Source: Geobacter metallireducens GS-15
Lineage (GTDB): Bacteria; Desulfobacterota; Desulfuromonadia; Geobacterales; Geobacteraceae
Assembly: GCF_000012925.1 (NCBI RefSeq)
Contig: NC_007517.1
Location: 1,590,001-1,622,000 of the forward strand
Reading direction: 5' to 3'
DNA length: 32,000 nucleotides
Part shown: piece after piece, positions 15,932 through 31,472 of the stretch
Layout: every line of letters starts with the position of its first letter
Numbering within the stretch: position 1 is the stretch's first letter
Notes under the pieces: model-generated
Seen by the model: the letters and a program-made list of their open reading frames with translations, nothing else
Database searches by the model: none
What the model was told of the DNA's origin: nothing
Position numbers and translations under genes: made by a program

Positions 15932-15965
15932 GGCGCTTAGCTGAAAATGCTAAGTGCCTTTTTTG
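15932..15965 (+). terminator. Rho-independent terminator after tRNA-fMet
   Basis: Stem GGCGCTTAGC / GCTAAGTGCC (one G:U pair) with loop TGAAAAT, followed by TTTTTTG. Confidence 0.7.
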
Positions 15966-16122
15966 TTGTCCTGACGCATGTTTTGCTTTGGGTGGCAAAA
16001 TAGATAGTTGCGAGTCCTACTCCTGTCAAGGCAATCCACCCCTTGGACTGAGTGAGCCGGTCCACGTACCGCTCCCAGAACTCGGCAATCTCAGGGGCCC
16101 GGAAGAGTGAAGGACATCTCCC

Positions 16123-17469
16123 ATGAATTCTGACCGCAAACAACGGTTGCTGACGCTGACCCCGGAGCGGCTGGCGGACGCCCTGCTGGAACTGGCCGCC
16201 CGCGATGATGCTGCCGACGATCTGGTGGAACGGATGATCGCTACCCCCTGGGAAAATATCGAGCGCTTCAGGAAAAGACTGGCCGGCATCAAGCGCAGCC
16301 GCCGCTTCATCCGGTGGGGTGAATCCGCGGCCTTTGCCCGTGAACTGCTTGCCCTCCTGCAGGATGTACAGGCGGGAGTCTCCGATCCCCGCACGGGCGC
16401 CGAGCTGGTTGCCGCCTTCTACGAGTGCGACAAGGGGGCCCTGGGAAACTGCGACGATTCCAGCGGCCATGTGGGTGATGTCTTCCGGCATGATGCCAGA
16501 GAACTCTTCGTCCACTACGCCTCCCGCTGCGACGAGAAGGAGTGGCTGGGGGATCTGGTTTACAAGGTGAGCCGTACCGATGACTATGGGGTGCGGGATG
16601 CCTTGGTCAAATGCGCCATCGACTATCTGCCGGAGCCGGTCATCCGGACCATGGTGAAACGGTTTCAGAAAATGGCCGACGGCGAGAGCGACGAATACCA
16701 CAAACGGCACTGGCTGGGGCTGGCCGAGTCCCTTGCCCGGCAGCTCAAGGATGCCCCCCTGTTCGAGCGGACACGGCGCGCCTCGTGGGGGAGTCTCTCC
16801 ACCGCAGCCTGCGTCGACATAGCCCGGGTATATTTGGAGAGCGGCGACGGGCAGACGGCCCTGGCGTGGCTCGAGAAGATTCCGGTGACGGAGAACTTCA
16901 TGGCGGAGGATCGGGACTCGCTGCTGCTGGAGGTCCATGGCCGACTGGGGAACCCAGCTCGGCAGGCCGACGTCGCCTGGCGGATCTTCAGGCGTCACAG
17001 AAGCCTTGCCTCCCTGACGCGACTGCTGGACGTAATCGGCAGTGACCAGAGGGATGCCGTAGTGGCAGGGGAAGTTGCCGCCATTCTCGGGGAGGATCGG
17101 TTCTCTCCGGGGGATGCCGCCTTTCTGGTGGAGGTCGAGCGCCCCGACGACGCGGAAAACTATCTCCTCAGGCATGCCGACGCGCTTAACGGCGACGACT
17201 ACAGCGGGCTTCTCCCCCTGGCCGAGGCCATGGAGCAGAGCGGTCGCCACCTCTGCGCTTCCTTGCTGTATCGGGCACTGCTCGATTCGATCCTCCGCCG
17301 GGCCCAGACCAAGACCTATCCCCACGGTGCCCGGTATCTCCGCAAGCTCGATAAACTCGCCGGGACCATTACCGACTGGCGCACCTTTGAGTCCCATGAC
17401 TTTTACAAGGAGAATCTCCGGCTGAACCACGGCCGGAAAAGCAGTTTCTGGTCCCGTTACGGGGAGTAA
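16123..17469 (+). CDS. Conserved hypothetical alpha-helical protein, 448 aa (from memory it resembles the DUF6880-type family; unverified)
   Basis: ATG with GAAGGA upstream, strong GC3 bias in this frame and a balanced charged/helical composition. The C-terminus reads ...YPHGARYLRKLDKLAGTITDWRTFESHDFYKENLRLNHGRKSSFWSRY. The longer antisense ORF (15937..17616) is Gly/Pro-rich, has no RBS and is taken to be a shadow ORF. Confidence 0.8.
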   Translation: MNSDRKQRLLTLTPERLADALLELAARDDAADDLVERMIATPWENIERFRKRLAGIKRSRRFIRWGESAAFARELLALLQDVQAGVSDPRTGAELVAAFYECDKGALGNCDDSSGHVGDVFRHDARELFVHYASRCDEKEWLGDLVYKVSRTDDYGVRDALVKCAIDYLPEPVIRTMVKRFQKMADGESDEYHKRHWLGLAESLARQLKDAPLFERTRRASWGSLSTAACVDIARVYLESGDGQTALAWLEKIPVTENFMAEDRDSLLLEVHGRLGNPARQADVAWRIFRRHRSLASLTRLLDVIGSDQRDAVVAGEVAAILGEDRFSPGDAAFLVEVERPDDAENYLLRHADALNGDDYSGLLPLAEAMEQSGRHLCASLLYRALLDSILRRAQTKTYPHGARYLRKLDKLAGTITDWRTFESHDFYKENLRLNHGRKSSFWSRYGE

Positions 17470-17479
17470 GGTTGGTGTG

Positions 17480-17608
17480 ATGATTCTCGGCAGGAGGAAG
17501 AAACCGACTGTGGTGGTTCCAGGCGGGCCATGGATGGCGCTGCTCTGGGTGGCGTTGTCGGTTTGTTTCTGGGGATGCCAGGTATTATACTCGGCCGGTA
17601 ATCGGTGA
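17480..17608 (+). CDS. Candidate small membrane protein (42 aa)
   Basis: MILGRRKKPTVVVPGGPWMALLWVALSVCFWGCQVLYSAGNR*. It has a basic N-terminus followed by one hydrophobic helix. It begins 11 nt after the stop of the 448-aa gene and has only a weak RBS (AAGG). Not in the ORF track. Confidence 0.25.
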   Translation: MILGRRKKPTVVVPGGPWMALLWVALSVCFWGCQVLYSAGNR

Positions 17609-17768
17609 ACTTTCACTACAACTCAGACTGAACGAAGCGAGTCGGGTTGGTTTTGGCACTGTGGTGGGCATGGCAATTGGCGTGGCCGGCAAGTTGGCCA
17701 TCGGCTTCGCCATGATCGGACTTTTTCTCGTGAAGTGGTTTATATGAAAGAATTAATGGTGGGTTTTA

Positions 17769-18338
17769 ATGATTCCTAGAGTCCCCTCACCAGCGACTAT
17801 GCTGTCAGTATTGAAACTCTTCCTCATTCCGGTCGGTGGCGGGATACCCGCCGGCGTCATGCTCGCCCAGACCAAAGGTGTGGCGTGGCCTTTTACGACA
17901 CTGCTTTATCTGGCATCGGACATCATCCTGGCGCTTGCCTTTGAACCGGTTCTCCGGTTGCTTGCCTTCATCTGCGGGAAGGTTTCCTTTTTATCCCGGA
18001 TCGGTGCGGTTATGAAAGCAGCGACAGCCCGCAGCGTCTCCCATTTCAGCGGTACTGGCGCAGGTCCGATTGCTCTCATCATGATTGCCTTCGGCGTTGA
18101 CCCAATGACAGGTCGGGCCTCGGCTCTTGCGGCCGGACACGGCATTATCGCAGGGTGGGCGTTCGCCATTGCTGGGGACATGATCTACTTCGCGGTTATC
18201 GCGATCAGCACCCTGCGTCTCAATTCCTATATCCACGACCCTAACATTACGATGCTGATAATCCTTGTTGCGATGTTCTGCGTTCCGGCCTTGGTGCGCT
18301 TCATCCGTTCCAAGCTGGTCATCCTGCAGAAGGCGTAG
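17769..18338 (+). CDS. Integral membrane protein, COG2426 / putative small multidrug-export-like family
   Basis: 189 aa with about five hydrophobic helices. The LFLIPVGGGIPAGVMLA...ASDIILALAFEPVL pattern is reminiscent of that family. The assignment rests on pattern memory only. Confidence 0.6.
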   Translation: MIPRVPSPATMLSVLKLFLIPVGGGIPAGVMLAQTKGVAWPFTTLLYLASDIILALAFEPVLRLLAFICGKVSFLSRIGAVMKAATARSVSHFSGTGAGPIALIMIAFGVDPMTGRASALAAGHGIIAGWAFAIAGDMIYFAVIAISTLRLNSYIHDPNITMLIILVAMFCVPALVRFIRSKLVILQKA

Positions 18339-18979: not shown

Positions 18980-19585
18980 ATGGAAGAACTCACCCCTCGC
19001 CAGAACGAAGTCCTCCGATTTCTCGAAGGCTACCTCACCCAATACGGCTATCCCCCAACCATGAGGGACATTGCCGCCCATCTGCGGATAAGTGGCACCC
19101 TTGGGGTATCGAAACACCTCACCGCCTTGGAACGCAAAGGGTACATCCGCAGGGACCCTGGCAACTCCCGCGGCATTTCCCTCGTGGGCCACGGATCAAA
19201 ATCGGCATCGCTCCCGATCGCTGGCGTGGTGCGGGCCGGCATGCTCCAGCCGGCCATCGAGGATATCGAGGGGTATCTGGCCATCGACCAGGCCCAGCTC
19301 AAGGGGGGAAAGTTCTTCCTGCGGGTGAAAGGGGACTCCATGGTGAACGCCGCCATCCTCGACGGCGACCTGGCCCTCATCCGTCCGCAGCCCACTGCGG
19401 AGAATAACGACATCGTCGTCGCCATGGTCGACGGCGAGGCGACCCTCAAGGCCTTTTACCGGGAGCGGGGACAGATTCGCCTCCAGCCCCGCAACCCGAA
19501 CATGGAGCCGATCATCATCCGGGAAGGGGAGGGTGAGGTCGCGATCGTCGGCAAGGTGGTCGGGATCTTCCGGACCCTGGAATAA
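18980..19585 (+). CDS. lexA: LexA repressor (SOS transcriptional regulator / S24 autopeptidase)
   Basis: Winged-helix N-terminus (LTPRQNEVLRFLEGYLTQYGYPPTMRDIA), an Ala-Gly cleavage region (VVRAGM), catalytic Ser in GDSMVNAAI and Lys in ATLKAFY. Confidence 0.95.
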   Translation: MEELTPRQNEVLRFLEGYLTQYGYPPTMRDIAAHLRISGTLGVSKHLTALERKGYIRRDPGNSRGISLVGHGSKSASLPIAGVVRAGMLQPAIEDIEGYLAIDQAQLKGGKFFLRVKGDSMVNAAILDGDLALIRPQPTAENNDIVVAMVDGEATLKAFYRERGQIRLQPRNPNMEPIIIREGEGEVAIVGKVVGIFRTLE

Positions 19586-19588
19586 GCC

Positions 19589-19843
19589 ATGCTGCAGCGG
19601 GTACAGGAACAGATCAGAGTCGGGGCCGTCTTTGGCCCGGGGCCGTCCATCCACCCGGTCTGGTTCGACTGGCGGCAACAGAAACACGCCATAGAGAAGG
19701 TCACCTACCGCTGGCGGCACATTGCGGGCAATGCCCTCCTGCTTCACTTCGCCGTTACCGACGGCACTGCCCTCTATGAGCTGATCTACAACTCCCGGGA
19801 ACAACTCTGGACCCTGGAAGCGGCCGATGCGGAGGTCGTGTGA
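19589..19843 (+). CDS. Hypothetical 84-aa protein embedded in the lexA-dinB operon
   Basis: The ATG lies 3 nt after the lexA stop. Its stop overlaps the dinB GTG start in GTGTGA (4-nt overlap). It has GC3-biased codons and no recognisable motif: MLQRVQEQIRVGAVFGPGPSIHPVWFDWRQQKHAIEKVTYRWRHIAGNALLLHFAVTDGTALYELIYNSREQLWTLEAADAEVV. Confidence 0.65.
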   Translation: MLQRVQEQIRVGAVFGPGPSIHPVWFDWRQQKHAIEKVTYRWRHIAGNALLLHFAVTDGTALYELIYNSREQLWTLEAADAEVV

Positions 19844-21081
19844 GCGGCCGGGTCATCATGCACGTGGACATGAACGCCTTTTTCGCCAGCGTGGAGCAGC
19901 AGCACGACCCCGCGCTCAGGGGCAAGCCCATCGCCGTCATCGGCTCCGCAGCCCGCACCGTCATCACCACTGCCTCCTACGAGGCCCGGGCCTTTGGCGT
20001 CAAAACCGGCATGACCGTCTGGCAGGCACAACAGAAATGCCCCCAGATCATCCTCGTCACCGGAGACAACCGGAAATACACCTACACCTCCGCCCGGATC
20101 GTCGAGATGATGAAGCAGTTCACCCCGCTGGTGGAGGTCTTCTCCATCGACGAGGCCTTTCTCGACGTCACCGGCTCCCTCTCCCTGTATTCCAGCGCCG
20201 AGCGGATCGCCTTTCTCCTCAAGGCCGAGATCCGGCACCACTTCGGCCTTACCTGCTCCATCGGCATCGCCCCCAACAAGCTCCTCGCCAAGCTCGCCTC
20301 GGAGATGAAAAAGCCCGACGGCCTCACCGTCATCAAGCCCGACGACGTTGCCCCGGTCCTCGAAACCCTGCCGATCAAGGAACTCTGCGGTATCGGCGCC
20401 AAGATGGAGTGCCAGCTGAACCTCCTGGGGATCAGAACCTGCGGCGAGTTGGGCCGCTACCCGGTGGACCGGCTGATGCGCAAATTCGGGATAGTGGGCG
20501 AGAAGCTCCACCTCATGGGGCAGGGGATCGACGACTCCCCGGTAGTCCCCCACGAAGAGGCCGAGGAAGTCAAATCGGTGGGCCACTCGACGACGCTTGA
20601 GCACGACATCGAGGACCGGCGGGAGATCCTTAGGTGGCTCCTCCAACTCTCCGAGATGGTGGGGCGCCGGGCCCGCAGATATAACGTCTGGGGAAAGACC
20701 GTCACCCTCTCCATCCGCTACGCCGACTTCGACACCTGGGTAGGGAGGCAGGAAACGCTCCCCCACCACATCAACCAGAGCGATGACATCTACCGGGCCG
20801 CCGTCGCCATCCTCGATACTCTTGTCCTGGAGCAGCCGGTAAGGCTCCTGGGGGTAAGGCTCAGTAACCTCCGCTACGAGTCGAACCAACTGCCGCTCTT
20901 CGAGGAGGAGCGGAAGAAGGTGCTCCTGGCCGGGGCCATGGACCAGGTGAACGACAGGTTCGGCGACTTCGCCGTCACCTTTGGGAGCCTCCTGGACAAG
21001 GAGCGGCGCCAGGAGAAGGGCTCCCACGTCATCTCCCCCGCCTGGCGGCCGGAGGGGATCAGGAATGTGGATGTGAAGTGA
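19840..21081 (+). CDS. dinB: DNA polymerase IV (Y-family translesion polymerase)
   Basis: IMHVDMNAFFASVEQ, FSIDEAFLDVTG, GIAPNKLLAKLASEMKKPDG and the HhH segment LPIKELCGIGAK. GTG start preceded by GGAGG. Confidence 0.95.
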   Translation: MSGRVIMHVDMNAFFASVEQQHDPALRGKPIAVIGSAARTVITTASYEARAFGVKTGMTVWQAQQKCPQIILVTGDNRKYTYTSARIVEMMKQFTPLVEVFSIDEAFLDVTGSLSLYSSAERIAFLLKAEIRHHFGLTCSIGIAPNKLLAKLASEMKKPDGLTVIKPDDVAPVLETLPIKELCGIGAKMECQLNLLGIRTCGELGRYPVDRLMRKFGIVGEKLHLMGQGIDDSPVVPHEEAEEVKSVGHSTTLEHDIEDRREILRWLLQLSEMVGRRARRYNVWGKTVTLSIRYADFDTWVGRQETLPHHINQSDDIYRAAVAILDTLVLEQPVRLLGVRLSNLRYESNQLPLFEEERKKVLLAGAMDQVNDRFGDFAVTFGSLLDKERRQEKGSHVISPAWRPEGIRNVDVK

Positions 21082-23244: not shown

Positions 23245-24402
23245 ATGACGTCACGTACCACAGCAATTTTCGGTGTTTTCGTTGCTATCTCGGCATCCGC
23301 CACATTGATGGTGGGGGATAGCCCTGTCCATGCCGCATCCTGGGGGCTCTGGAACGACCCCCACGGCGGTATTGTGAAATCCGTCCCCCGTCCCGCGCCT
23401 GCACCGCCACCTGTTGCTCCCCCCAAGGCAGAAGTTCCTCCCGTTCCCTCTCAAGACTCGGAAAAACATTCCGATACAGCCGCGTTAGCCGAGACTGCCC
23501 CGGCTACGTCATCGTCAGCCGAGACAAATCCCCAATCTTCCGCTGCAGACTCGATTCCTTCGGACAGTGCCGCCGTTCCGCCCGCTGTCACCGATGCGAC
23601 TGGAACTGTTGCGTCCGACAACGAGCCCGGGTCTCCCGTTCTGATGGCCACCGAGCCTGCCGAAAAAGCCGTCGCTGCTGTAGCAACGGAGAATCCCGGT
23701 ACTACTGAAAACCGGCAGCCTGTCGTTGCGGAATCGCCAGCGAAGACCGTGGCTGATGATACTACGATTCCGGTTCAGGAGCAGGGCGCCATTGGTACCA
23801 GTGTTGCCGATCAAGTGCCTGCGACTGGTGAGATGCCGGCGACTAAGGAAGTGCCTGCTCCCAATCCCGTGGTGCTTGCCGGGGTGGATCAGCCCACGTC
23901 GGTTCCCCCGCAGGCTGGCGATGCCTATGTCATCGGTGCCGGCGATGTTCTCGATATCGCGGTCTGGCGCGACGAGAGCCTGACCAAGACGGTGGTGGTG
24001 CTTCCCGACGGGACCATTTCGTTTCCCCTTATCGGTGTGGTCAAGGCGGGTGGGAAGACCGTGGAGCAACTCAAGGATGAGATCAGGACGCGCCTTTCGA
24101 GCTACTTTTCCGACCTGACCCTCTCCCTTGAGGTGCGGCAGGCCAACAGCATGATGATCTTTGTGGTGGGAAAGGTGAATTCTCCCGGGCGTCATCCGAT
24201 CAGCTCGCCTGTGAACGTGTTACAGGCCCTGGCCATGGCGGGCGGGGTAAATCCCTTTGCCAAGAAGGATGACATCAAGATTTTCCGCCAGGACGAGGGG
24301 AAAACCGTCATCTTTTCCTTTGCCTACAGCGAGGTGTCCCGGGGTAACCGGCTGGAAGAGAATATTGTCCTGAGGCGCGGTGACCTGATCGTCGTCCCCT
24401 GA
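23245..24402 (+). CDS. Polysaccharide export protein (Wza/Poly_export family, PEP-CTERM-locus type) with a long low-complexity N-terminal extension
   Basis: Signal peptide, then about 180 aa rich in Ala/Pro/Ser/Thr/Glu, then the Poly_export plus SLBB core (YVIGAGDVLDIAVWRDESLTKTVVVLPDGTISFPLIGVVKAGGKTVEQL...MIFVVGKVNSPGRHP...VLQALAMAGG...LRRGDLIVVP). Confidence 0.9.
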   Translation: MTSRTTAIFGVFVAISASATLMVGDSPVHAASWGLWNDPHGGIVKSVPRPAPAPPPVAPPKAEVPPVPSQDSEKHSDTAALAETAPATSSSAETNPQSSAADSIPSDSAAVPPAVTDATGTVASDNEPGSPVLMATEPAEKAVAAVATENPGTTENRQPVVAESPAKTVADDTTIPVQEQGAIGTSVADQVPATGEMPATKEVPAPNPVVLAGVDQPTSVPPQAGDAYVIGAGDVLDIAVWRDESLTKTVVVLPDGTISFPLIGVVKAGGKTVEQLKDEIRTRLSSYFSDLTLSLEVRQANSMMIFVVGKVNSPGRHPISSPVNVLQALAMAGGVNPFAKKDDIKIFRQDEGKTVIFSFAYSEVSRGNRLEENIVLRRGDLIVVP

Positions 24403-24427: not shown

Positions 24428-25660
24428 ATGTCTTTGCCATGCCGCAGACCGGTTTCGGCCGTGCAGGTGATCTCTGCCGCCGCAGCCCTGATCGGAACTG
24501 CCCTTACAATGCTTCCCGTTTCCGCCTTCGCTGACGACTTCCGTCTCCTGGGTGCGACGGCCCTGCAACAGGAGTATATCGACAATCTGTTCATGTCTCC
24601 CGACGATCGGAAGAGTTCATTTATCACCACTCTTTCGGGCGGATTCGAGGCAACGGAACGGACCGAGCGGCTCGATGCCGACCTGACGCTCAAGCTGGAC
24701 CAGATCTTTTACACCGATGAGAACAGGCTCGGCAATTCGCTGAACCAGCTTTACCGGGGAGGTGCCCGCTACCGGCTCACGGAGCTTCTGACCCTGGGTG
24801 CGTCAGCGAAGTATGAGCTGAACAACCGCCCCGACCAGGACATCGAGCGGACAGGGCTCATCGTGGAGCCGGTCACCCGGCACCGGCAGGAATACGGGGC
24901 CACGGCCAATTACATCCTGAGCGAGACAATGTCCACGGCCCTTTCGTACTCGTATCTGCAGGATGACTTCAATGACCGCACCAACACGCAGAACAGCTCC
25001 CACGATCTCTCCGTGGTGCTGGAGCGGAATCTAAGCGCTTACCTGCCGGACCTGACCGGGAGCCTCATTTTCGGCTACGGCAACTACCAGACGCGGGAGG
25101 CCACGGACACAAAGGTTGAGCAGTACCTGGCCATGGCCGGGATCTCGTGGTCCTACACCGAGCTCTGGAAACTGTTTGCCAATCTGGGGGCCAGCTACAC
25201 CACGTCGGAATTCGACACTCTTGCCGGCTCATCGCTTGTCCGTAACGGCGAGCACAGTTGGGGGGGGACGGGGAAGGCCGGGGTCAGCTACAGGGATGAG
25301 TACACTGCCGGGACCCTTGCCTTCAGCCAGGGAATCGTGCCGGCATCGGGGAGATCGGGCGCAAGCCGCCGCACCGGCCTGACCCTCGATCTGAGTCGGC
25401 GCTTCACGGAAGAATTGACCGGCTTCCTGTCGTCCGGGTTCTTTCTGAACCGCTCCGACAGGGGAGAGTTCTCGGCGGGCGAAATCGACGAGACCACCTT
25501 CAATGCGGGGATTGGCGCCCGGTACAACGTGAGCAGGGACTTCTCCCTGGAGGCGCGGTACGGCTATGCACGGATCGACTACGGGGTGTCCGGACAGACG
25601 GCGGAGCGCAACGGTGTGATGATGAGCCTGGTCTACCGGTATCCGTTTCTGGAGAAATAA
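24428..25660 (+). CDS. Outer-membrane beta-barrel protein of the type found in PEP-CTERM/exosortase EPS loci
   Basis: Signal peptide ending SAFA. Alternating hydrophobic/polar beta-strand periodicity runs throughout (e.g. GATANYILSETMSTALSYSY, GISWSYTELWKLFANLGASYT, LEARYGYARIDY, VMMSLVYRYPF). It sits between the exporter and the chain-length determinant, as in other such loci. Confidence 0.7.
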   Translation: MSLPCRRPVSAVQVISAAAALIGTALTMLPVSAFADDFRLLGATALQQEYIDNLFMSPDDRKSSFITTLSGGFEATERTERLDADLTLKLDQIFYTDENRLGNSLNQLYRGGARYRLTELLTLGASAKYELNNRPDQDIERTGLIVEPVTRHRQEYGATANYILSETMSTALSYSYLQDDFNDRTNTQNSSHDLSVVLERNLSAYLPDLTGSLIFGYGNYQTREATDTKVEQYLAMAGISWSYTELWKLFANLGASYTTSEFDTLAGSSLVRNGEHSWGGTGKAGVSYRDEYTAGTLAFSQGIVPASGRSGASRRTGLTLDLSRRFTEELTGFLSSGFFLNRSDRGEFSAGEIDETTFNAGIGARYNVSRDFSLEARYGYARIDYGVSGQTAERNGVMMSLVYRYPFLEK

Positions 25661-25682: not shown

Positions 25683-27242
25683 ATGGAAGCAGAAATCAAA
25701 TCGTTCGGCGATATCGTACGGATCGTAAAGCGGCGCAGGCTGAGCCTCATCGTTCCGGCTGCGGTCATATTTGCGATGACGCTCGTGGCCGCAGTGGTGT
25801 TGCCGCGCATCTACCGTTCCACCTCCACGATCCTCATCGAGGAGCAGGAGATTCCCCGCGATTTCGTCATGACCACCGTGACGAGCTACGCCGAGGAGCG
25901 TCTCCAGACCATCAACCAGCGGATCATGAGCTCCACGAAACTCCTGGAGATCATCAACCGCTTCAATCTCTACAGCGACCTGCGCAAGAGCAAGACCACC
26001 GAAGAGATCATCTCCCAGATGCGCGGGGACATCAAATTCCAGACCATCAGCGCCGATGTTGTGGATCGCCGCACCGGCAGGCCCACCGCCGCCACCATCG
26101 CCTTCTCCCTCTCTTACGATGGGAAGAGCCCGGCAACGGTCCAGCAGGTGTCGAACGTCCTGGCATCCCTCTACCTGGAGGAGAACCTCAGGGTTCGCGA
26201 GCAGCAGACCCTGGGAGCCACCCGGTTCATGGAAGAGGAAATGAAGGATGTTCAGGCAAAGCTCGTGGAGATCGAGAGAAAGATCGCCGATTACAAGCAG
26301 CGCAACGTGAGCGCGCTGCCCGAGCTTGCCCAGTTGAACATGCAGACACTTGACCGGAGCGACCGGGACGTGGACCAGTTCCATGACCAGCTGCGAATGC
26401 TGCGGGAGAAGGAAGGGTATCTGGAGGCCCAGCTTTCCAGTATCCCCACGGACGACGCCAACACCGACAAGGGGCGGCTGCGGGAATTGCGGGTGAAGCT
26501 TGTGGACCTCAAGACCCGCCTCTCCGATGCCCATCCCGACGTGATCAAGGCCCGCTCCGAGATTGCCGCCCTTGAAAGACAGCTCAAGGGGTCGGGACGC
26601 AATATGGAAAGCAAGCCCGACAATCCTGCCTACGTGACCCTCTCGGCCCAGCTGGCCAGCACCCGGTCCGAGATCGAATCGGTCAAGCGCCAGGTGCAGC
26701 TGGCCCAGGGCAAGCGCGACAGTTACCGCCGCCGCCTGGAGGCTTTCCCCCAGGTGGAGGAGGGGTACAAGGTGCTGCTCGTGGAGCGGAACAACCTTCA
26801 GCTCAAATATGACGATCTCTCCAAGAAGTTCATGGAAGCCAAAGTGGCCCATGGCCTCGAAAAGGAGCAGATGGGGGAACGCTTCACCCTCATCGACGCG
26901 GCCCGGCTCCCCGAGAAACCGGTGAGCCCCAATGTGCCGGCCATCCTCGTTATCGGCCTGATTCTCGGGCTGGGTGCCGGCATCGGCACCGCCGCCTTCA
27001 GGGAATACGGCGATCAGTCCGCCCACGGCATCGAAACCCTGGCACGGGCCACGGCCCTGCCGGTGCTCGCCGCGATCCCCGAGATCGTCACCCTGGAGGA
27101 AACCGACGTCCGCAAGCGGCGTTATCGGATGGCGGCAGCCGGGGTGGCCATGGTCATCATTGTGGCGATTCCGCTTATTCACTTCTTCGTCATGGATCTG
27201 GATATCATCGTGGCCAAGATGATGCGGCGGCTCTCCGTCTAG
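25683..27242 (+). CDS. Polysaccharide chain-length determinant (Wzz/PCP family, PEP-CTERM-locus type)
   Basis: N-terminal Wzz motif with a TM helix (IVKRRRLSLIVPAAVIFAMTLVAAVVL...YRSTSTILIE). A long periplasmic coiled coil follows (LRVREQQTLGATRFMEEEMKDVQAKLVEIERKIADYK...). The second TM helix comes after the PEKPVSPN motif, and there is an additional C-terminal TM helix. Confidence 0.9.
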   Translation: MEAEIKSFGDIVRIVKRRRLSLIVPAAVIFAMTLVAAVVLPRIYRSTSTILIEEQEIPRDFVMTTVTSYAEERLQTINQRIMSSTKLLEIINRFNLYSDLRKSKTTEEIISQMRGDIKFQTISADVVDRRTGRPTAATIAFSLSYDGKSPATVQQVSNVLASLYLEENLRVREQQTLGATRFMEEEMKDVQAKLVEIERKIADYKQRNVSALPELAQLNMQTLDRSDRDVDQFHDQLRMLREKEGYLEAQLSSIPTDDANTDKGRLRELRVKLVDLKTRLSDAHPDVIKARSEIAALERQLKGSGRNMESKPDNPAYVTLSAQLASTRSEIESVKRQVQLAQGKRDSYRRRLEAFPQVEEGYKVLLVERNNLQLKYDDLSKKFMEAKVAHGLEKEQMGERFTLIDAARLPEKPVSPNVPAILVIGLILGLGAGIGTAAFREYGDQSAHGIETLARATALPVLAAIPEIVTLEETDVRKRRYRMAAAGVAMVIIVAIPLIHFFVMDLDIIVAKMMRRLSV

Positions 27243-27286: not shown

Positions 27287-28465
27287 ATGGCGGAAACATC
27301 GACAGCTCTTGAACGGATGAGAAAAAAGGTCCTGGAGTCGGCCCGTTCCGACAGCCAGGAAGCTGTTTCAACCGAAGCGCCCCGGCTCAAGGCGGCACTG
27401 CCGGCGCCCGAAACAGAGGCGGTTGTCTTCGAACCGGTGGAGCAGCGGGCCGAAACGGCGCCTAAACGGAAGCTGTCCACCTTGGGGCGGATGGGAAAGA
27501 CTGCCTTTGGTCTGATCTCTTCCCGTCGGGAGAACGCGCTTCCTGCGACAGTAGATTCAGGGACTGCTGCAGATCTACAATACGAGGCAACGCAACCAAT
27601 GGCTGAAGTGGACACATGTTGCGGAAATCTCGCCGTGCAGGCGCCTGAACCGGTGGTTTCACCGGACGAAGTTATAGACACTGCTGGAGTAAGTTGCCCC
27701 GAAGAGCCTTGCATCGATCACACGGATGATAAGCGCCAGCCCTCCGTCGTCAACAGGGAAAAGATCGGCTGGGTGTCGCCGGCCTATACCGTCTCGCGCT
27801 CCGTCCGCCTCGACCCGCAGCTGGTGGCGAGAAATAAATGTGTCGCCTTTTTGTCCGACGCCGACGAAGTCGAATCGTACCGCGTGCTCCGAACCCAGAT
27901 TCTCCAGCGCAGCCGCGAGCGGGGCGGAAACACCATCATGATCACGAGCGCCCTTCCGGGCGAGGGGAAGACCCTCACCGCCATCAACCTGGCCCTCACC
28001 TTTGCCAAGGAGTTCCGTCAGACGGCTCTCCTGGTCGATTGCGACCTGCGCCGCCAGCGGATCCACGAACTGCTCGGCATCGGGGGCGAAAAGGGACTCA
28101 ACGACTATCTGCTGGACGACTGCCCCATATCCGATCTCATGGTATGGCCCGGTGTGGAGAAGCTCACTCTCATATCCGGCGGCAGGACCATCACCGAAAG
28201 CAGCGAACTGCTCGGTTCACCCCGCATGAAGGAACTGGTGGAAGACATGAAGCACCGCTACCCGGAGCGGTACGTGATCTTCGACGTGCCGGCCGTCCTC
28301 AGCGGGGCTGACGCCCTGGCCTTCGCGCCGCTGGTGGATCACATTGTCGTCACCGTCAAGGCGGGCGAGACCCCCATGTCCGAAGTCACCCGGGCGATCA
28401 GGATGCTCCCCCGGGAGAAGGTGCTGGGGGTGGTGCTGAACCGCCGGCGCAGGGGCGACGCGTAG
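27287..28465 (+). CDS. BY-kinase-like P-loop ATPase (EPS / PEP-CTERM-locus 'tyrosine autokinase' family), with no C-terminal Tyr cluster
   Basis: Walker A ITSALPGEGKTLTAINLA, Walker A' LLVDCDLRRQ and Walker B YVIFDVPA. It has an N-terminal extension of about 165 aa with no recognisable domain. The C-terminus is ...VLNRRRRGDA and contains no tyrosines. Confidence 0.85.
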   Translation: MAETSTALERMRKKVLESARSDSQEAVSTEAPRLKAALPAPETEAVVFEPVEQRAETAPKRKLSTLGRMGKTAFGLISSRRENALPATVDSGTAADLQYEATQPMAEVDTCCGNLAVQAPEPVVSPDEVIDTAGVSCPEEPCIDHTDDKRQPSVVNREKIGWVSPAYTVSRSVRLDPQLVARNKCVAFLSDADEVESYRVLRTQILQRSRERGGNTIMITSALPGEGKTLTAINLALTFAKEFRQTALLVDCDLRRQRIHELLGIGGEKGLNDYLLDDCPISDLMVWPGVEKLTLISGGRTITESSELLGSPRMKELVEDMKHRYPERYVIFDVPAVLSGADALAFAPLVDHIVVTVKAGETPMSEVTRAIRMLPREKVLGVVLNRRRRGDA

Positions 28466-28472
28466 CAAAGAC

Positions 28473-29456
28473 GTGGAACTCGCCGCAGGTCATGACGGGG
28501 GCACGATCCGGGCCATCAGGTTCGCGGTCGTTGCCCTCGTCCTGTTTCTGGCTGAATTCCTGGCCCCGGAGGCCGTCTTCGAGCCCCTCAACCGCACCAC
28601 CGCCATCATGACGGCGGAACTCTTGGGGCTCATGGGGCGCCATGCCCAGGCAGCAGGCACCCTGGTACGGCTCGACGGCTTCTCTGCCCGGGTCGTGACG
28701 GAATGCTCCGTCATCAACCCCGCCATCCTTTTTGCCTCCTTCGTCCTTGGTTCCGGCGCCTCTCCCCGCGCTAAGGCTGCCGGCATCCTGGCCGGTATTC
28801 CCATCCTCAACTCAATCAATGTCCTTCGCATTGCCGCTGTCATTGCCACGGGCGCGGCGGTTCCAGCCCTCTTCGAGGCGGTTCACGTCTACGTCGGTCA
28901 GATACTCATGGTGGGCGTGGTGTTATTCGGGGCGATTCTCTGGAGCCGGTGGGCCTCCGCCGATGGGGTTGCAACCTTTCCGTTTGTTCCCGGGGTACTG
29001 GCGTGGTCGGTGGTTCTCTTCGTTCCGTGGCTCTTCATGAACCGTTGGTACGTTGCCGTGGGCGATATACCGCTCAGGTTTTTGTTTGAAATGGCCGGAA
29101 GGCCCGTGGAGCTTCCCGTCGAGCGTCCTCTCTACTACCAGACCTTCAACAGCGTCCTTTTCGCGTCACTGGTCCTGGCGACAGGCTCCATCCCGATCCG
29201 GCGAAAAGCCGTATTCCTTGCAGGGGGGCTGGCTCTGCTGGCCGTGGGGCATCAGCTCTTCCGCGTCTGTAACATCCTCTTGTCCGCTTTCGGCATCCGG
29301 GAGGCCTACCTTGCCTCCGTGGCCATTCATGAAATCCTCGGATATCTCCTGCCGTTTCTGCTGTGGTTCATCCTGTGCCATGGGGTATCAAGACCGTCTG
29401 CGCACCGCCAGGGCTCCGCCGAGAAAGACCGCCGAGAGGCCGATACCCCAAGGTGA
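28473..29456 (+). CDS. Exosortase-family transpeptidase (short form; apparent tandem duplication)
   Basis: Polytopic membrane protein with the exosortase/archaeosortase catalytic signature in the expected order: Cys78 in VVTECSVIN (28704-28706), Arg119 in PILNSINVLRI and His138 in EAVHVYVG. It is the last gene of the EPS export operon, where EpsH/XrtA-type genes sit. The only in-frame start is a GTG. Confidence 0.85.
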   Translation: MELAAGHDGGTIRAIRFAVVALVLFLAEFLAPEAVFEPLNRTTAIMTAELLGLMGRHAQAAGTLVRLDGFSARVVTECSVINPAILFASFVLGSGASPRAKAAGILAGIPILNSINVLRIAAVIATGAAVPALFEAVHVYVGQILMVGVVLFGAILWSRWASADGVATFPFVPGVLAWSVVLFVPWLFMNRWYVAVGDIPLRFLFEMAGRPVELPVERPLYYQTFNSVLFASLVLATGSIPIRRKAVFLAGGLALLAVGHQLFRVCNILLSAFGIREAYLASVAIHEILGYLLPFLLWFILCHGVSRPSAHRQGSAEKDRREADTPR

Positions 29457-30728
29457 CATCGCCGGCACGAAATTCGAGTCCGGCAACCCCATTGACGAAA
29501 AAAGATCGAGCCGCGGGAAGACCCCGCCGGTGCGCTGGTCGGTCACCGGTTTTCCCGAGGAAATGAGACGGGAGATGAGCTGGTCCGGCGTTTCATTGGG
29601 GTATTGGGCCTTCAGTACCGCCACGGAACCCGCCACGTGGGGCGCCGCCTGGGACGTCCCGCCCATGGTCGAGCCGGCGGCAGTGATGAATGCCCCCGGC
29701 GCCAGCATGTTGAGGAACGTGGCGGTGTTCGACATGCAGGGGACCTTGTCGGCACCGCTGGTCGCGTCGGTGCAGGCGGTCCACTTGATCCCTCCCACGT
29801 TCGCGTCGTACACCGCACCCACCGACACCGCGGCCGGGGTGCAGGCGGGGCGTGAGATGCCGTCTGTATACCCTTCGTTCCCTGCCGAGATGACTGTCAC
29901 GATTCCCGCGCTCTTGGCGTTATTGATGGGGGTCACGTAGGGATTGGTCCCCCTGTTGCTGCATGCTGCGGTGTTGCGGCTACCATCCCCCAGGCTCATG
30001 TTGATGGCCACAATATTGTACGTTGCCCGGTTTGAAATGGCCCAGTTGATTCCTGCGATAACCAGGGCATCGGAAGAGGTGCCGTCGGGATTGAACACGT
30101 CGAGAACGGCTAGTTTCGCACCGGGAGCGACACCGGCGACAATACCGGCCACGTTGGTGCCGTGGCCCAGGTCGTCCAGGGCGTTGTCGTTGGTGGCAAT
30201 ATCCACCGATGCCGCCACCTTGCAGTCGGCCGGAACCCCCGGCGCGGTGCAGGAGCCGAAGGCCGGCAGCGTATAGTTTATCCCGCTGTCGATTATCGCC
30301 ACGGTTGTGCCGCTGCCGGTTTTCCCGATGGCGGCGAGTGGGGGCTGGCCGATGAGGGGGAGGCTCTCGGCGAGATGGGGCCGGAGGACGCGGTTTTCGT
30401 ACACAGCCTGGATGCCGGGAGCCGTCAGGAGACGGTCAAGGGCCTTTGTGGATCGAATTCTGGCGAAGAGCATCGGCAGGTGGGAGTAATCTGTTACCAC
30501 CTCTCCCCCCTCGGCCCTGAGTGCGCCGATAACGTGGGATTTGGCAATGGCACCCTCATCGAGCAGGATCAGCATCTCCTGGGGAGCGCCGGACGAAAGC
30601 CGTTGCCGCATGCCCGGTGGTTCAACGGGCGCAGCGGCAGCGACTGACGCGGGGCTTTGACTGAAAAGGGCGGCAAGGAATGTGGCGGCGAGGATTTTCC
30701 GGATGACGGGAAGACGATGTGCGGGCAT
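29388..30728 (-). CDS. Subtilisin-like serine protease (peptidase S8) with I9-type propeptide and a C-terminal exosortase-type sorting signal
   Basis: Catalytic triad in TVAIIDSGI (Asp), LGHGTNVAGIVAG (His) and GGTSQAAPHVAGSVAVL (Ser), with the oxyanion Asn in SAGNEG. The C-terminus VPAMSPWGIGLSAVFLGGALAVRRRS* is motif plus TM helix plus basic cluster. I prefer the start at MPAHRLPV... (30728, GGAGA RBS). In-frame alternatives are at 30740 and 30761. Confidence 0.92.
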   Translation of the reverse strand: MPAHRLPVIRKILAATFLAALFSQSPASVAAAAPVEPPGMRQRLSSGAPQEMLILLDEGAIAKSHVIGALRAEGGEVVTDYSHLPMLFARIRSTKALDRLLTAPGIQAVYENRVLRPHLAESLPLIGQPPLAAIGKTGSGTTVAIIDSGINYTLPAFGSCTAPGVPADCKVAASVDIATNDNALDDLGHGTNVAGIVAGVAPGAKLAVLDVFNPDGTSSDALVIAGINWAISNRATYNIVAINMSLGDGSRNTAACSNRGTNPYVTPINNAKSAGIVTVISAGNEGYTDGISRPACTPAAVSVGAVYDANVGGIKWTACTDATSGADKVPCMSNTATFLNMLAPGAFITAAGSTMGGTSQAAPHVAGSVAVLKAQYPNETPDQLISRLISSGKPVTDQRTGGVFPRLDLFSSMGLPDSNFVPAMSPWGIGLSAVFLGGALAVRRRS

Positions 30729-30842
30729 GACAGTCTCCATTTGGCGGGAGGATTGATTCATGCTTAAGAATGGCAGATGAAGTTCTCTTCGGTGTTACGA
30801 CGGGGCCGAAAGTGTGTGAATGTGCGTGGATTTTGGGTGGGA

Positions 30843-30873: not shown

Positions 30874-31419
30874 TCAAGACTGGCGCTTGCGCCGGATGCC
30901 GGCGAGGCCCGCAAGTCCCGAGCCCATGAGGAAGAGGGCAGGGGGGACGGGGACGGTGGTGGCGTTGGCGGGTGTTATGACCGTAACGATCCCTGGGCCG
31001 CTTGGGGCGACCTCGGTGATAATAGGGGGGAGTGGTTGTTGGGTGAAGAATGCGCTCATGCTTCGTATGCTGCTTGAACCTATCGTCGCCATGCGGCTTC
31101 CGCCGGCGCCGAAGGTGTCCGATGTGTCGAAGAAGAATCCCTGGGAGTAGGAGAGTTGGGTGAAGGTAAAGTCCATGGGTTCCACGACGGTCACGATGCC
31201 GGTTTTTTCAGCTGGAGCAATGACGGTGATGATCCCCTTGTCCTTTCTATCTTCAATCGGATTGATGACAGTGAGAATGGCGTTGCCACCGCTCAGGCTC
31301 TGGTTCAGGCCGGGAAGCTTAACATCAGCGCTTGAGGAGAAATCGGTGTATGCCGCCAGGGCATTGCCGGCAAGTCCGAGCAGGAGGGCCGCGGCGATTG
31401 TGGCGGTGATTGTTTTCAT
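30874..31419 (-). CDS. PEP-CTERM sorting-domain protein with internal short repeats
   Basis: GGAGGAACC RBS plus ATG at 31419, and signal peptide MKTITATIAAALLLGLAGNALA. The C-terminus VPVPPALFLMGSGLAGLAGIRRKRQS* is PEP-like motif plus TM helix plus Arg/Lys cluster. Four copies of an x-I-[ILV]-T-V-[IV]-x-P motif are present. Confidence 0.85.
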   Translation of the reverse strand: MKTITATIAAALLLGLAGNALAAYTDFSSSADVKLPGLNQSLSGGNAILTVINPIEDRKDKGIITVIAPAEKTGIVTVVEPMDFTFTQLSYSQGFFFDTSDTFGAGGSRMATIGSSSIRSMSAFFTQQPLPPIITEVAPSGPGIVTVITPANATTVPVPPALFLMGSGLAGLAGIRRKRQS

Positions 31420-31442: not shown

Positions 31443-31472
31443 GAAAAAGAGGGGCCTCGGTCGAGGCCCCTC
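31443..31472 (-). terminator. Rho-independent terminator after the PstS-like gene
   Basis: On the minus strand, GAGGGGCCTCGACCGAGGCCCCTC forms a 10-bp stem and is followed by TTTTTCC. It starts 26 nt downstream of the stop at 31498. Confidence 0.7.

Follow-up and report, generated by a model that had tools for sequence, protein, structure and literature searches.

The S8 family protease and the exosortase encoded by two adjoining genes in Geobacter metallireducens form an already catalogued pair, that is the exosortase H (XrtH)/IPTL-CTERM system. We consider it likely that the locus as a whole is an XrtH system in which the protease is the cognate, and probably the dedicated, IPTL-CTERM substrate. 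What is new emerges from genome comparison, which shows that the predicted protease family is a regular and sometimes physically fused partner of such exosortases. The window, that is the whole stretch of 32,000 nucleotides that was analyzed, contains all but one of the features collected in Table 1.

Table 1. Features of the exosortase-protease locus. Bit scores are given with the cutoff of the respective model.
Feature	Position	Strand	Remarks
Wza-type polysaccharide export protein	23245..24402	+	TIGR03027 122.1, under cutoff 180
Outer-membrane beta-barrel protein, PEP-CTERM-system type	24428..25660	+	TIGR03016 43.7, under cutoff 90.85
Polysaccharide chain-length determinant	25683..27242	+	TIGR03007 248.5, under cutoff 278.85
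BY-kinase-type tyrosine autokinase	27287..28465	+	TIGR03018 208.2, under cutoff 230.65
Exosortase H (XrtH)	28473..29456	+	327 aa; TIGR04177 above cutoff
Sorting signal and stop codon of protease	29388..29474	-	NF-VPAMSPWG, helix IGLSAVFLGGALAV, RRRS; IPTL-CTERM class
S8 subtilase	29388..30761	-	Longest ORF, 457 aa; intact
Annotated protease start	30728	-	446 aa; 11 codons 3' of longest-ORF start
Secreted 181-aa protein	30874..31419	-	GI[IV]TV[IV]xP repeats; VPLPA-like PEP-CTERM tail VPVPPALFLMGSGLAGLAGIRRKRQS
Terminator-like hairpin	31449..31472	-	10-bp stem, 8 G-C pairs, T-run; between 434-aa and 181-aa genes
Secreted PstS/PBP-like protein, 434 aa	31498..32000	-	3' part only; continues past window
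VPLPA-like PEP-CTERM protein, 245 aa	L001:7128-7865, outside window		Further upstream than 434-aa gene

Exosortase H and the C-terminal tail of the protease

With 100.0 bits (cutoff 86) the XrtH model TIGR04177 is the best of all exosortase models for the enzyme, XrtX follows with 60.2 bits, which is under its cutoff of 170, and neither XrtA (TIGR03109) nor EpsI is among the matches at E≤1 in the locus. A 93% identical ortholog already carries the name 'exosortase H' at NCBI. The first-pass annotation had taken the protein for a short, atypical and unassigned exosortase over which two classes of sorting signals were in conflict. Neither part of this description can be upheld: since the 327-aa protein passes the XrtH model, the IPTL-type tail on the adjoining protease represents the expected cognate pairing. 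The exosortase domain spans residues 15-162 and includes C78, R119 and H138; E77-C78, N116..R119 and H138 are invariant in an alignment of 13 long XrtH sequences. It is followed by a conserved part of about 150 residues with four helices and the motifs YYQTF and FR..N, which lies outside the XrtH model with its 158 positions. A comparison of this C-terminal half with the exosortase domain, of which it might be a degenerate duplicate, gave a BLAST match of 25 residues (E=5e-4) and an hhalign probability of 33%, and we do not claim a duplication. A fold search of the PDB with the AlphaFold model (pLDDT 82.5) returned nothing at E≤0.001. The XrtH protein of G. uraniireducens, encoded 5.6 kb from a protease homolog, reaches 245 bits. 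The score of the window XrtH is far below this value and therefore points to a divergent branch of the family.

The protease gene is convergent with the exosortase gene, the 3' end of which it overlaps by 69 nt. The annotated 446-aa protein is 100% identical to a public protein from G. metallireducens, and the protease matches Pfam Peptidase_S8 (PF00082) with 109 bits (cutoff 21.8). Its Asp/His/Ser triad and oxyanion Asn (D158, H200, S370 and N254) are present and do not vary among 20 homologs, and the closest solved structures are subtilisin-like proteases (E=6e-22). Inspection by eye suggests a signal peptide at the N-terminus (MPAHRLPVIRK-ILAATFLAALF-SQSPASVAA/AAP) and a possible I9-like propeptide region in addition to the catalytic domain.

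At its C-terminus the ORF reads ...NFVPAMSPWGIGLSAVFLGGALAVRRRS*, and the arrangement of VPAMSPWG, helix and RRRS that had been noticed earlier was found exactly so. The whole protease scores 22.4 bits with the NCBIfam model TIGR04174 (IPTL_CTERM), about 2 bits over the cutoff of 20.5, and the tail alone scores 26.9 bits (E=4e-6) and matches no further family at E≤0.01. The PEP-CTERM models (TIGR02595, PF07589) gave no match at E≤1 with the protease and none at E≤0.01 with the isolated tail. The first-pass assignment of this tail to the IPTL-CTERM and not the PEP-CTERM class thus stands: it neither scores as PEP-CTERM nor fails both types of model. Orthologs with 75-78% identity have kept VPALSPWG, in one case as VSALSPWG (L006), followed by a helix and a basic cluster of the type RRRF, RRRR or RRR. 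The eight-residue motif outside the helix is retained at catalytic-domain identities as low as about 50%, the homolog from G. pickeringii carries the degenerate version PVPALPLQAVP, and the one from Geotalea uraniireducens (33.4 bits with IPTL_CTERM) bears the public name 'IPTL-CTERM sorting domain-containing protein'. Judged from these sequences, the likeness of the protease tail to a sorting signal is not due to chance.

Protease and exosortase across genomes

Genes for the protease and XrtH are close neighbors in five lineages from at least two phyla, namely G. metallireducens, a Desulfuromonadales MAG, G. uraniireducens, a Nitrospiraceae MAG and a Syntrophorhabdales contig. In addition, three divergent proteins combine a long XrtH, a signal-like helix, an S8 domain and an IPTL-type tail. 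These fusions (P0151, P0155 and P0179) originate from metagenome assemblies and are known as protein sequences. Their mutual identities over the full length are 44% and 30%, and their S8 parts share 51-52% (two proteins) and 32% (the third) identity with the window protease. A word-based search found no fusions beyond these three.

The presence of a tail is strongly associated with the presence of an exosortase. In 66 metagenome loci with an S8 homolog complete at the 3' end, an exosortase gene accompanies 12 of the 18 tailed homologs and none of the 48 tail-less ones (Fisher p=3.8e-9; p=2.2e-5 with the unedited heuristic). Furthermore, the predicted tail motif tracks the type of exosortase. 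This was apparent from 21 loci and fusion proteins, nine of them linked to XrtH and 12 to XrtM-like enzymes: all nine XrtH-linked tails read VPAx[S/D]x[WYLV]G (one with S in place of P), while proline is found two residues ahead of tryptophan in each of the 12 tails linked to XrtM-like enzymes. Some S8 homologs are encoded 2-6.5 kb from an XrtD gene. For one of them (L017), XrtD was dropped as the candidate cognate sortase because a short XrtM-like exosortase is closer (677 nt).

It might be argued that the adjacency in G. metallireducens is incidental, that the protease tail is a PEP-CTERM variant processed by XrtA and that XrtH has other substrates. The locus does resemble an XrtA locus, and the genome harbors XrtA-type enzymes together with ten PEP-CTERM proteins. 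We nevertheless regard this explanation as highly improbable, as the tail has no PEP-CTERM match at E≤1 and conserved synteny, fusions, the distribution of exosortase genes over tailed and tail-less homologs and motif covariation are hard to ascribe to chance.

Another alternative is that the tail serves as an uncleaved membrane anchor, which would leave the protease in the periplasm, tethered to the inner membrane and possibly assisting XrtH or the polysaccharide export apparatus instead of being processed by the former. Our literature search found no experiment on any XrtH or on IPTL-CTERM cleavage, nor do we know of one. A fusion of XrtH and protease would suit two subunits of one machine just as well as an enzyme and its substrate, and the motif is degenerate in some homologs, as in the L006 and G. 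pickeringii proteins mentioned above. On the other hand, a plain anchor does not need a conserved eight-residue motif outside the helix, let alone one that persists down to about half-identical catalytic domains and covaries with the type of the adjacent exosortase. In the fusion proteins, neither the signal-like helix in the interior nor the tag at the C-terminus has been lost. An IPTL-CTERM protein from Methylomirabilis has been found in the isolated S-layer, outside of the outer membrane (PMC8671808), and such proteins can therefore reach the cell surface. Taken together, these points make a mere anchor improbable.

The notion of a dedicated exosortase-protease module, put forward in the first-pass annotation, is thus partly supported, namely by synteny in five lineages, three fusions, the association in metagenomes and motif covariation. 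It does not hold throughout, however: in five of seven genome loci with a long XrtH, identified in a scan of genome contigs and not including the G. metallireducens locus itself, there is no protease gene within 10 kb, and G. pickeringii possesses the protease with no XrtH nearby. A literature search on exosortases and subtilases revealed no report of such a pairing.

Neighboring genes and the second class of tails

The predicted Wza, outer-membrane, chain-length-determinant and tyrosine-kinase proteins encoded next to the exosortase constitute a paralogous polysaccharide-export cassette. TIGR03027, TIGR03016, TIGR03007 and TIGR03018 are the best matches of the four export genes, yet none of them reaches the cutoff. 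As all four stay under the cutoffs for the XrtA system, the genes are paralogs of XrtA-system genes. The earlier description as an XrtA-style EPS locus is hence appropriate with regard to the style of the export genes and fails with regard to these cutoffs.

A different class of tail is present on the proteins encoded upstream of the protease. The PEP-type tail of the 181-aa protein, likewise pointed out in the first-pass annotation, was corroborated by TIGR02595 (PEP_CTERM), which it passes with 18.0 bits (cutoff 16); with Pfam PF07589 it remains at 17.9, under the cutoff of 20.7. The VPLPA-CTERM model TIGR03370 yields 24.3 bits for the 181-aa and 20.1 bits for the 245-aa protein, both under the cutoff of 25.35, which is passed by a Nitrospiraceae ortholog of these VPLPA-like neighbors with 27.2 bits. 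The genes for the 434-aa and 245-aa proteins accompany the protease in other lineages too.

These tails are most likely served by another exosortase of the XrtA or XrtD type. Two EpsH-family exosortases, Gmet_1503 and Gmet_2003, and ten PEP-CTERM proteins have been reported from elsewhere in the G. metallireducens genome, and Gmet_1503 is an EpsH-EpsI fusion (PMC1569441). The same architecture is exhibited by XrtD proteins that we met in other genomes. Gmet_1503 and Gmet_2003 can account for the PEP-type tails. Alternatively, XrtH could process the whole cluster, i.e. the IPTL-type protease as well as the VPVPPA-tailed 181- and 245-aa proteins, and thus act on two classes of motifs, a reading that was implicit in the first-pass annotation. 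The 245-aa and 434-aa proteins accompany protease and XrtH in G. metallireducens, the Desulfuromonadales MAG and the Nitrospiraceae MAG, no further exosortase was seen in about 20 kb at these three loci, and tails of both types start with VP and continue with a Gly-rich helix. Still, we judge this alternative unlikely. IPTL and VPVPPA tails belong to separate curated models without cross-matches, and a profile built from the tails of the protease family gives VPVPPA tails only about 5 bits. In G. pickeringii, a 245-aa-like and a 434-aa protein occur with the protease and without a nearby XrtH, and G. metallireducens has its other EpsH-family exosortases, one with a fused EpsI part, at its disposal (PMC1569441). 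Finally, the tight tracking of exosortase type by the tail motif argues for narrow exosortase specificity.

Comparison with known systems and proposed function

An exosortase H/IPTL-CTERM sorting system was reportedly described by Haft et al. in 2012. The pair studied here agrees with it in that both models (TIGR04177, TIGR04174) are passed, the cargo tail is tripartite with motif, helix and basic cluster, Cys, Arg and His are conserved in the enzyme and the genes for enzyme and cargo are adjacent. It differs by the motif VPAMSPWG instead of the canonical IPTLxxWG, by an XrtH of the 300-370 aa form with its conserved additional C-terminal four-helix part, by the location within a polysaccharide-export cassette and by a recurring enzyme as cargo, in place of an assortment of surface proteins that are not related to each other. 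The PEP-CTERM/XrtA (EpsH) system shares the putatively Sec-exported cargo, the succession of motif, helix and Arg cluster, the polytopic Cys enzyme and the linkage with Wza, chain-length-determinant and tyrosine-kinase genes (PMC1569441). However, the protease tail fails the PEP-CTERM models, the exosortase fails XrtA, and EpsI as well as PrsK/PrsR/PrsT are absent from the window locus. Points of contact with the XrtD/VPLPA-CTERM system (TIGR04152, TIGR03370) are the S8 homologs encoded near an XrtD gene in other loci and the VPLPA-like tails of the 181- and 245-aa neighbors, which fall just short of the VPLPA cutoff; the window contains no XrtD and the tail of the protease itself is not of the VPLPA type. 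Gram-positive subtilases anchored by LPXTG sortases (SGO_0316 family, lactocepins) also combine an S8 domain, a C-terminal sorting signal, a Cys transpeptidase and delivery to the surface, but their envelope differs, and neither their sorting enzyme nor their motif is related to those described here. With the LPXTG peptidase model the protease gives a weak match (24.6 bits, cutoff 1400).

A functional precedent may be seen in OzpA (GSU2075) from G. sulfurreducens, which is reported to be a subtilisin-like protease that matures the cytochrome OmcZ. By this description OzpA is an extracellular Geobacter subtilase that processes a specific matrix protein, as the window protease might do as well; no omcZ gene adjoins the window protease. 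We know of no reported link between OzpA and an exosortase.

In the proposed route, the protease would be exported by Sec via its N-terminal signal peptide and remain tethered in the inner membrane by the C-terminal helix, while RRRS would face the cytoplasm. By analogy with sortases and archaeosortases, the polytopic XrtH (Cys78, Arg119, His138) would recognize VPAMSPWG at the periplasmic face, cut off the tail, probably through a thioacyl intermediate, and hand the protease over to an acceptor for delivery to the cell surface or the polysaccharide matrix. The active subtilase could then act on surface or matrix proteins, the obvious candidate targets being its travelling companions, the PEP-CTERM proteins of 181 and 245 aa and the PstS-like protein of 434 aa.

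With regard to annotation, the finding draws attention to a protease family that has not been curated and that pipelines could name after its partner, and it reveals that half of the XrtH protein lies outside the XrtH model. For most exosortases, dozens of dissimilar cargoes are predicted, so that experiments become diffuse, and to our knowledge there is no exosortase with a biochemically defined substrate-product pair. Here, an exosortase is combined with one enzymatically assayable cargo in a genetically tractable Geobacter, and the pairing is supported by natural fusions and by a motif that tracks the type of enzyme. The pair would offer a clean system for studying the cut site in the tail, the later attachment of the protease and the specificity of the exosortase.

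Tentatively, and with more doubt than confidence, we suggest a broader picture, in which the S8 subtilase family and small exosortases (XrtH in its long form together with a short, unclassified XrtM-like clade) are a co-evolving one-to-one pair that extends across phyla and is sometimes a single polypeptide. If so, these exosortases would exist mainly for the sake of the protease, which would be more than one cargo among many. The surface protease would serve as a maturase of matrix proteins, for example of the co-travelling VPLPA-type PEP-CTERM proteins, in parallel to the role of OzpA for OmcZ, and a single pathway would join the XrtH system with a second exosortase system, either XrtA or XrtD.

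Sorting signal of the protease and the adjacent exosortase

By its sequence, the S8 protease encoded next to the exosortase of Geobacter metallireducens GS-15 is a bona fide subtilase. It matches Pfam Peptidase_S8 with 109 bits, residues D158, H200, N254 and S370 are invariant in 20 homologs, the closest solved structures are subtilisin-like proteases, and inspection by eye suggests a signal peptide and, after it, a propeptide-like region. Database comparison revealed 100% identity with 'peptidase S8' of Geobacter metallireducens RCH3. The protein ends in NFVPAMSPWG-IGLSAVFLGGALAV-RRRS, which the first-pass annotation had assigned to the IPTL rather than the PEP class of sorting signals. This assignment is borne out and does not reflect a chance resemblance: NCBIfam TIGR04174 (IPTL-CTERM) is matched by the whole protein with 22.4 bits (cutoff 20.5) and by the 45-residue tail alone with 26.9 bits (E=4e-6), the tail alone matches no second family at E<=0.01, and the PEP-CTERM models of NCBIfam and Pfam do not match the protease even at E<=1. 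VPALSPWG is kept in five of six orthologs at 75-78% identity and replaced by VSALSPWG in the remaining one, and all six retain the helix and the RRR cluster. That the tail is a mere anchor and the protease an accessory subunit is quite unlikely, as the motif is conserved outside the helix. Among the best 120 homologs, 41 tails match IPTL_CTERM and 33 match NF033207 'midcut-by-XrtH' (E<=0.01).

The exosortase itself had been described as short and atypical. With 327 aa it is not short, and it passes the exosortase H (XrtH) model TIGR04177 with a score well above that of every other exosortase model, so the IPTL-type tail adjoins an enzyme class already assigned to such tails. The G. grbiciae ortholog (93% identity) is named 'exosortase H' by NCBI, and XrtH from Geotalea uraniireducens, which scores 245 bits, aligns end-to-end with 40% identity. 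Cys78, Arg119 and His138 are invariant in the XrtH alignment. TIGR04177 comprises 158 positions and covers only the N-terminal half. The other ~150 residues make up a four-helix part that is conserved, with the invariant motifs YYQTF, FR..N, AF and Y..P. Of 148 newly listed XrtH relatives 108 are 280-399 aa long, most listed matches span nearly the whole profile and, by these measures, relatives have the two-part form as a rule. A fold search with the AlphaFold model, which is confident (pLDDT 82.5), gave no match in the PDB at E<=0.001, and an hhalign value of 33% is only a weak hint that the C-terminal part may be a degenerate duplicate of the exosortase domain.

Another class of XrtH relatives has 640-690 aa (P0148, P0152, P0183, P0187, P0189, P0192, P0197, P0199 and P0202). 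In the two that were read, P0148 and P0152, the long XrtH precedes a signal-like helix and a domain of ~330 aa without Pfam match and without sorting tail; a Pfam scan of four of the nine found the exosortase domain alone. The extra domain may have a role analogous to that of EpsI fused to XrtA.

The convergent xrtH and protease genes overlap by 69 nt at their 3' ends, such that the DNA for the sorting helix and RRRS of the protease is read on the opposite strand as the cytoplasmic tail of XrtH, which is poorly conserved. In a Desulfuromonadales MAG (L006) the overlap is broken by a 3.8-kb insertion, the ORFs of which resemble a CHAD-domain protein, a ParA-like ATPase and a CYTH/NUDIX-like protein (translations read by eye).

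Features of the window and of compared loci (L001, G. metallireducens; L006, Desulfuromonadales MAG; L015, Syntrophorhabdales contig)
Feature	Position	Strand	Length	Remarks
S8 subtilase	29388..30761	-	457 aa	longest ORF; public gene calls begin at 30728 (446 aa)
XrtH	28473..29456	+	327 aa	TIGR04177: 100 bits, cutoff 86, residues 15-162
XrtH C-terminal part	28962..29390			residues ~165-305
xrtH/protease overlap	29388..29456		69 nt	convergent
PEP-CTERM protein	30874..31419	-	181 aa	directly upstream of protease, same strand
Terminator-like hairpin	31449..31472	-		10-bp stem, 8 G-C pairs, T-run
Long ORF	15937..17616	-	559 aa	no NCBIfam match
Long ORF	16123..17469	+	448 aa	no NCBIfam match
ORF	17769..18338			no NCBIfam match
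lexA, then dinB	18980..21081			dinB, DNA polymerase IV
Insertion	L006:11000..14750			three unrelated ORFs between xrtH and protease gene
245-aa/434-aa gene pair	L001:7128-9231			just past window end
245-aa/434-aa gene pair	L013			
245-aa/434-aa gene pair	L014:18000-20054			
Two-partner secretion system	L001:1-3869			
Two-partner secretion system	L015:1-7405			
ShlB gene	L019:5894-7051			near S8 homolog

Recurrence of the protease-exosortase pair

Four lines of comparative evidence, i.e. synteny, fusion, association and covariation, indicate that the protease-exosortase link exceeds adjacency in one genome. The pair recurs in the Desulfuromonadales MAG, where the unrelated insertion lies between the genes, and in an EPS locus of G. 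uraniireducens, where they lie 5.6 kb apart and the protease is termed 'IPTL-CTERM sorting domain-containing protein' in RefSeq. A Nitrospiraceae MAG has the gene order Wza-OMP-PCP-kinase-S8-CBM48-XrtH, and on a Syntrophorhabdales contig the pair is divergently oriented, with 469 nt in between. As exceptions, the protease is absent within 10 kb of XrtH in five of seven genomic long-XrtH loci, two of these five encoding instead a non-S8 protein of ~727 aa that has a VPALGxWG tail, and G. pickeringii has the protease with a degenerate tail and without a nearby XrtH.

Searching 1.84 billion representatives with a profile yielded three XrtH-S8 fusion proteins (915, 944 and 825 aa), in which a long XrtH precedes a signal-like helix, the S8 domain and an IPTL-type tail. 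An Inhibitor_I9 propeptide match precedes the S8 domain in P0179, and DUF11 follows it in P0151 and P0155. The fusions are 44% and 30% identical to one another over their whole length, and their colinearity at such divergence argues against an assembly artefact; their S8 parts share 51-52% (two) and 32% (the third) identity with the G. metallireducens protease.

In a set of 80 metagenome loci found with the protease family, 66 S8 ORFs had an intact 3' end. The locus also contained an exosortase gene in 12 of 18 cases with a tailed protein, usually no more than 700 nt away, versus none of 48 with a tail-less one (Fisher p=3.8e-9; 2.2e-5 with the unedited tail heuristic, which overlooked three obvious tails). 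It is extremely improbable that the adjacency is incidental and the tail a PEP-CTERM variant, since all comparative data count against this.

The tail motif varies with the exosortase. The nine tails that go with long XrtH, from six loci and three fusions, all follow V-[P/S]-A-x-[S/D]-x-[W/Y/L/V]-G, and all twelve linked to short exosortases (173-295 aa) have Pro two residues before Trp (VPTLPEWG, VPMLPWWG, APLPAWA). Most short exosortase genes lie within about 700 nt of the tailed S8 homologs (loci L021, L031, L033, L064, L072, L074, L080, L081, L091, L094, L016 and L017), the one in L016 being 6.5 kb off. XrtM was the best NCBIfam match for those scanned (L016 and eight of the eleven others), with 62-122 bits and thus below the cutoff of 125, which leaves them unclassified. 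Apparently, they represent an uncurated exosortase clade with S8 cargo carrying ..LPxW[G/A] tails.

Neighbouring genes and other features of the window

As the first-pass annotation had stated, the gene upstream of the protease ends in a PEP-CTERM-type tail. The tail VPVPPALFLMGSGL..GIRRK is common to the 181-aa protein and a 245-aa protein encoded beyond the window; with 18.0 and 17.1 (cutoff 16) both exceed the threshold of the generic PEP-CTERM model, and they score slightly below the cutoff of the VPLPA-CTERM model (24.3 and 20.1, cutoff 25.35), which the Nitrospiraceae ortholog tail passes (27.2). It is unlikely that XrtH handles both tail classes, given that the motif covaries with exosortase type and that the tail models show no cross-matches. 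Ten PEP-CTERM proteins and two EpsH-family exosortases are encoded elsewhere in the genome, namely Gmet_2003, with Gmet_2002 as EpsI, and the EpsH-EpsI fusion Gmet_1503 (Haft et al., 2006; PMC1569441). XrtD proteins found in other genomes are EpsH-EpsI fusions. The simplest reading of these sequences is one tail class per enzyme, with IPTL tails served by XrtH here and PEP/VPLPA tails by XrtA or XrtD elsewhere in the genome. The four genes preceding xrtH encode a Wza-like protein, an outer-membrane barrel, a chain-length determinant and a tyrosine kinase; XrtA-system models are the best matches of all four, each under cutoff, which points to a paralogous export cassette.

The genes for the 245-aa protein, weakly similar to the flocculation protein PepA, and for a secreted PstS/PBP-like protein of 434 aa form a pair. 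They are found together with the S8 protease in G. metallireducens and G. pickeringii and also in the Nitrospiraceae MAG, where their homologs lie 6-7 kb past the Wza-to-XrtH series. The strong hairpin between the 434-aa and 181-aa genes sits inside the 5' extension of a 202-aa ORF version and therefore favours the start of the 181-aa protein at 31419. In G. metallireducens and on the Syntrophorhabdales contig, the surroundings of the protease include, at a distance of a few kb, a two-partner secretion system composed of a TPS exoprotein of ~3300 aa and a ShlB/Omp85 transporter. Two long ORFs overlap on opposite strands in a stretch of 63% G+C, and flavin reductase genes lie between the SOS-type lexA-dinB pair and the EPS cassette.

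Proposed processing route and significance

Protease and XrtH both look catalytically competent, the topology of the protease tail is that of an exosortase signal, and the data show the two genes to be linked genetically, by fusion and by covariation. By analogy with sortase, archaeosortase and the PEP-CTERM model (PMC1569441), the protease would be exported by Sec, tethered via its C-terminal helix, cleaved at or near VPAMSPWG by Cys78 of XrtH, transferred to an acceptor and delivered to the surface or matrix. Surface delivery is plausible because an IPTL-CTERM protein of Methylomirabilis was located in isolated S-layer sheets (PMC8671808). Candidate substrates of the protease are the 181-, 245- and 434-aa proteins that travel with it. 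OzpA from G. sulfurreducens, which reportedly matures OmcZ, sets a precedent within Geobacter for a subtilase acting on a single matrix protein.

The locus agrees with the XrtH/IPTL-CTERM system in every feature that can be judged from sequence, the signal peptide being a putative one, and does not fit the PEP-CTERM/XrtA system. We assign it to the former, known system, close relatives of both parts being already named in public annotation. Three points are absent from curated libraries and the literature searched: the subtilase family recurs as a seemingly dedicated and sometimes fused partner of small exosortases, the subtype of its tail goes with the exosortase clade in the loci compared, and the second half of XrtH is conserved among the aligned relatives yet lies outside its model. 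By these points, the module of exosortase, anchored protease and repeat cargo that had been proposed is partly borne out, and a tractable system for exosortase biochemistry is offered; the feature is still not categorically new.
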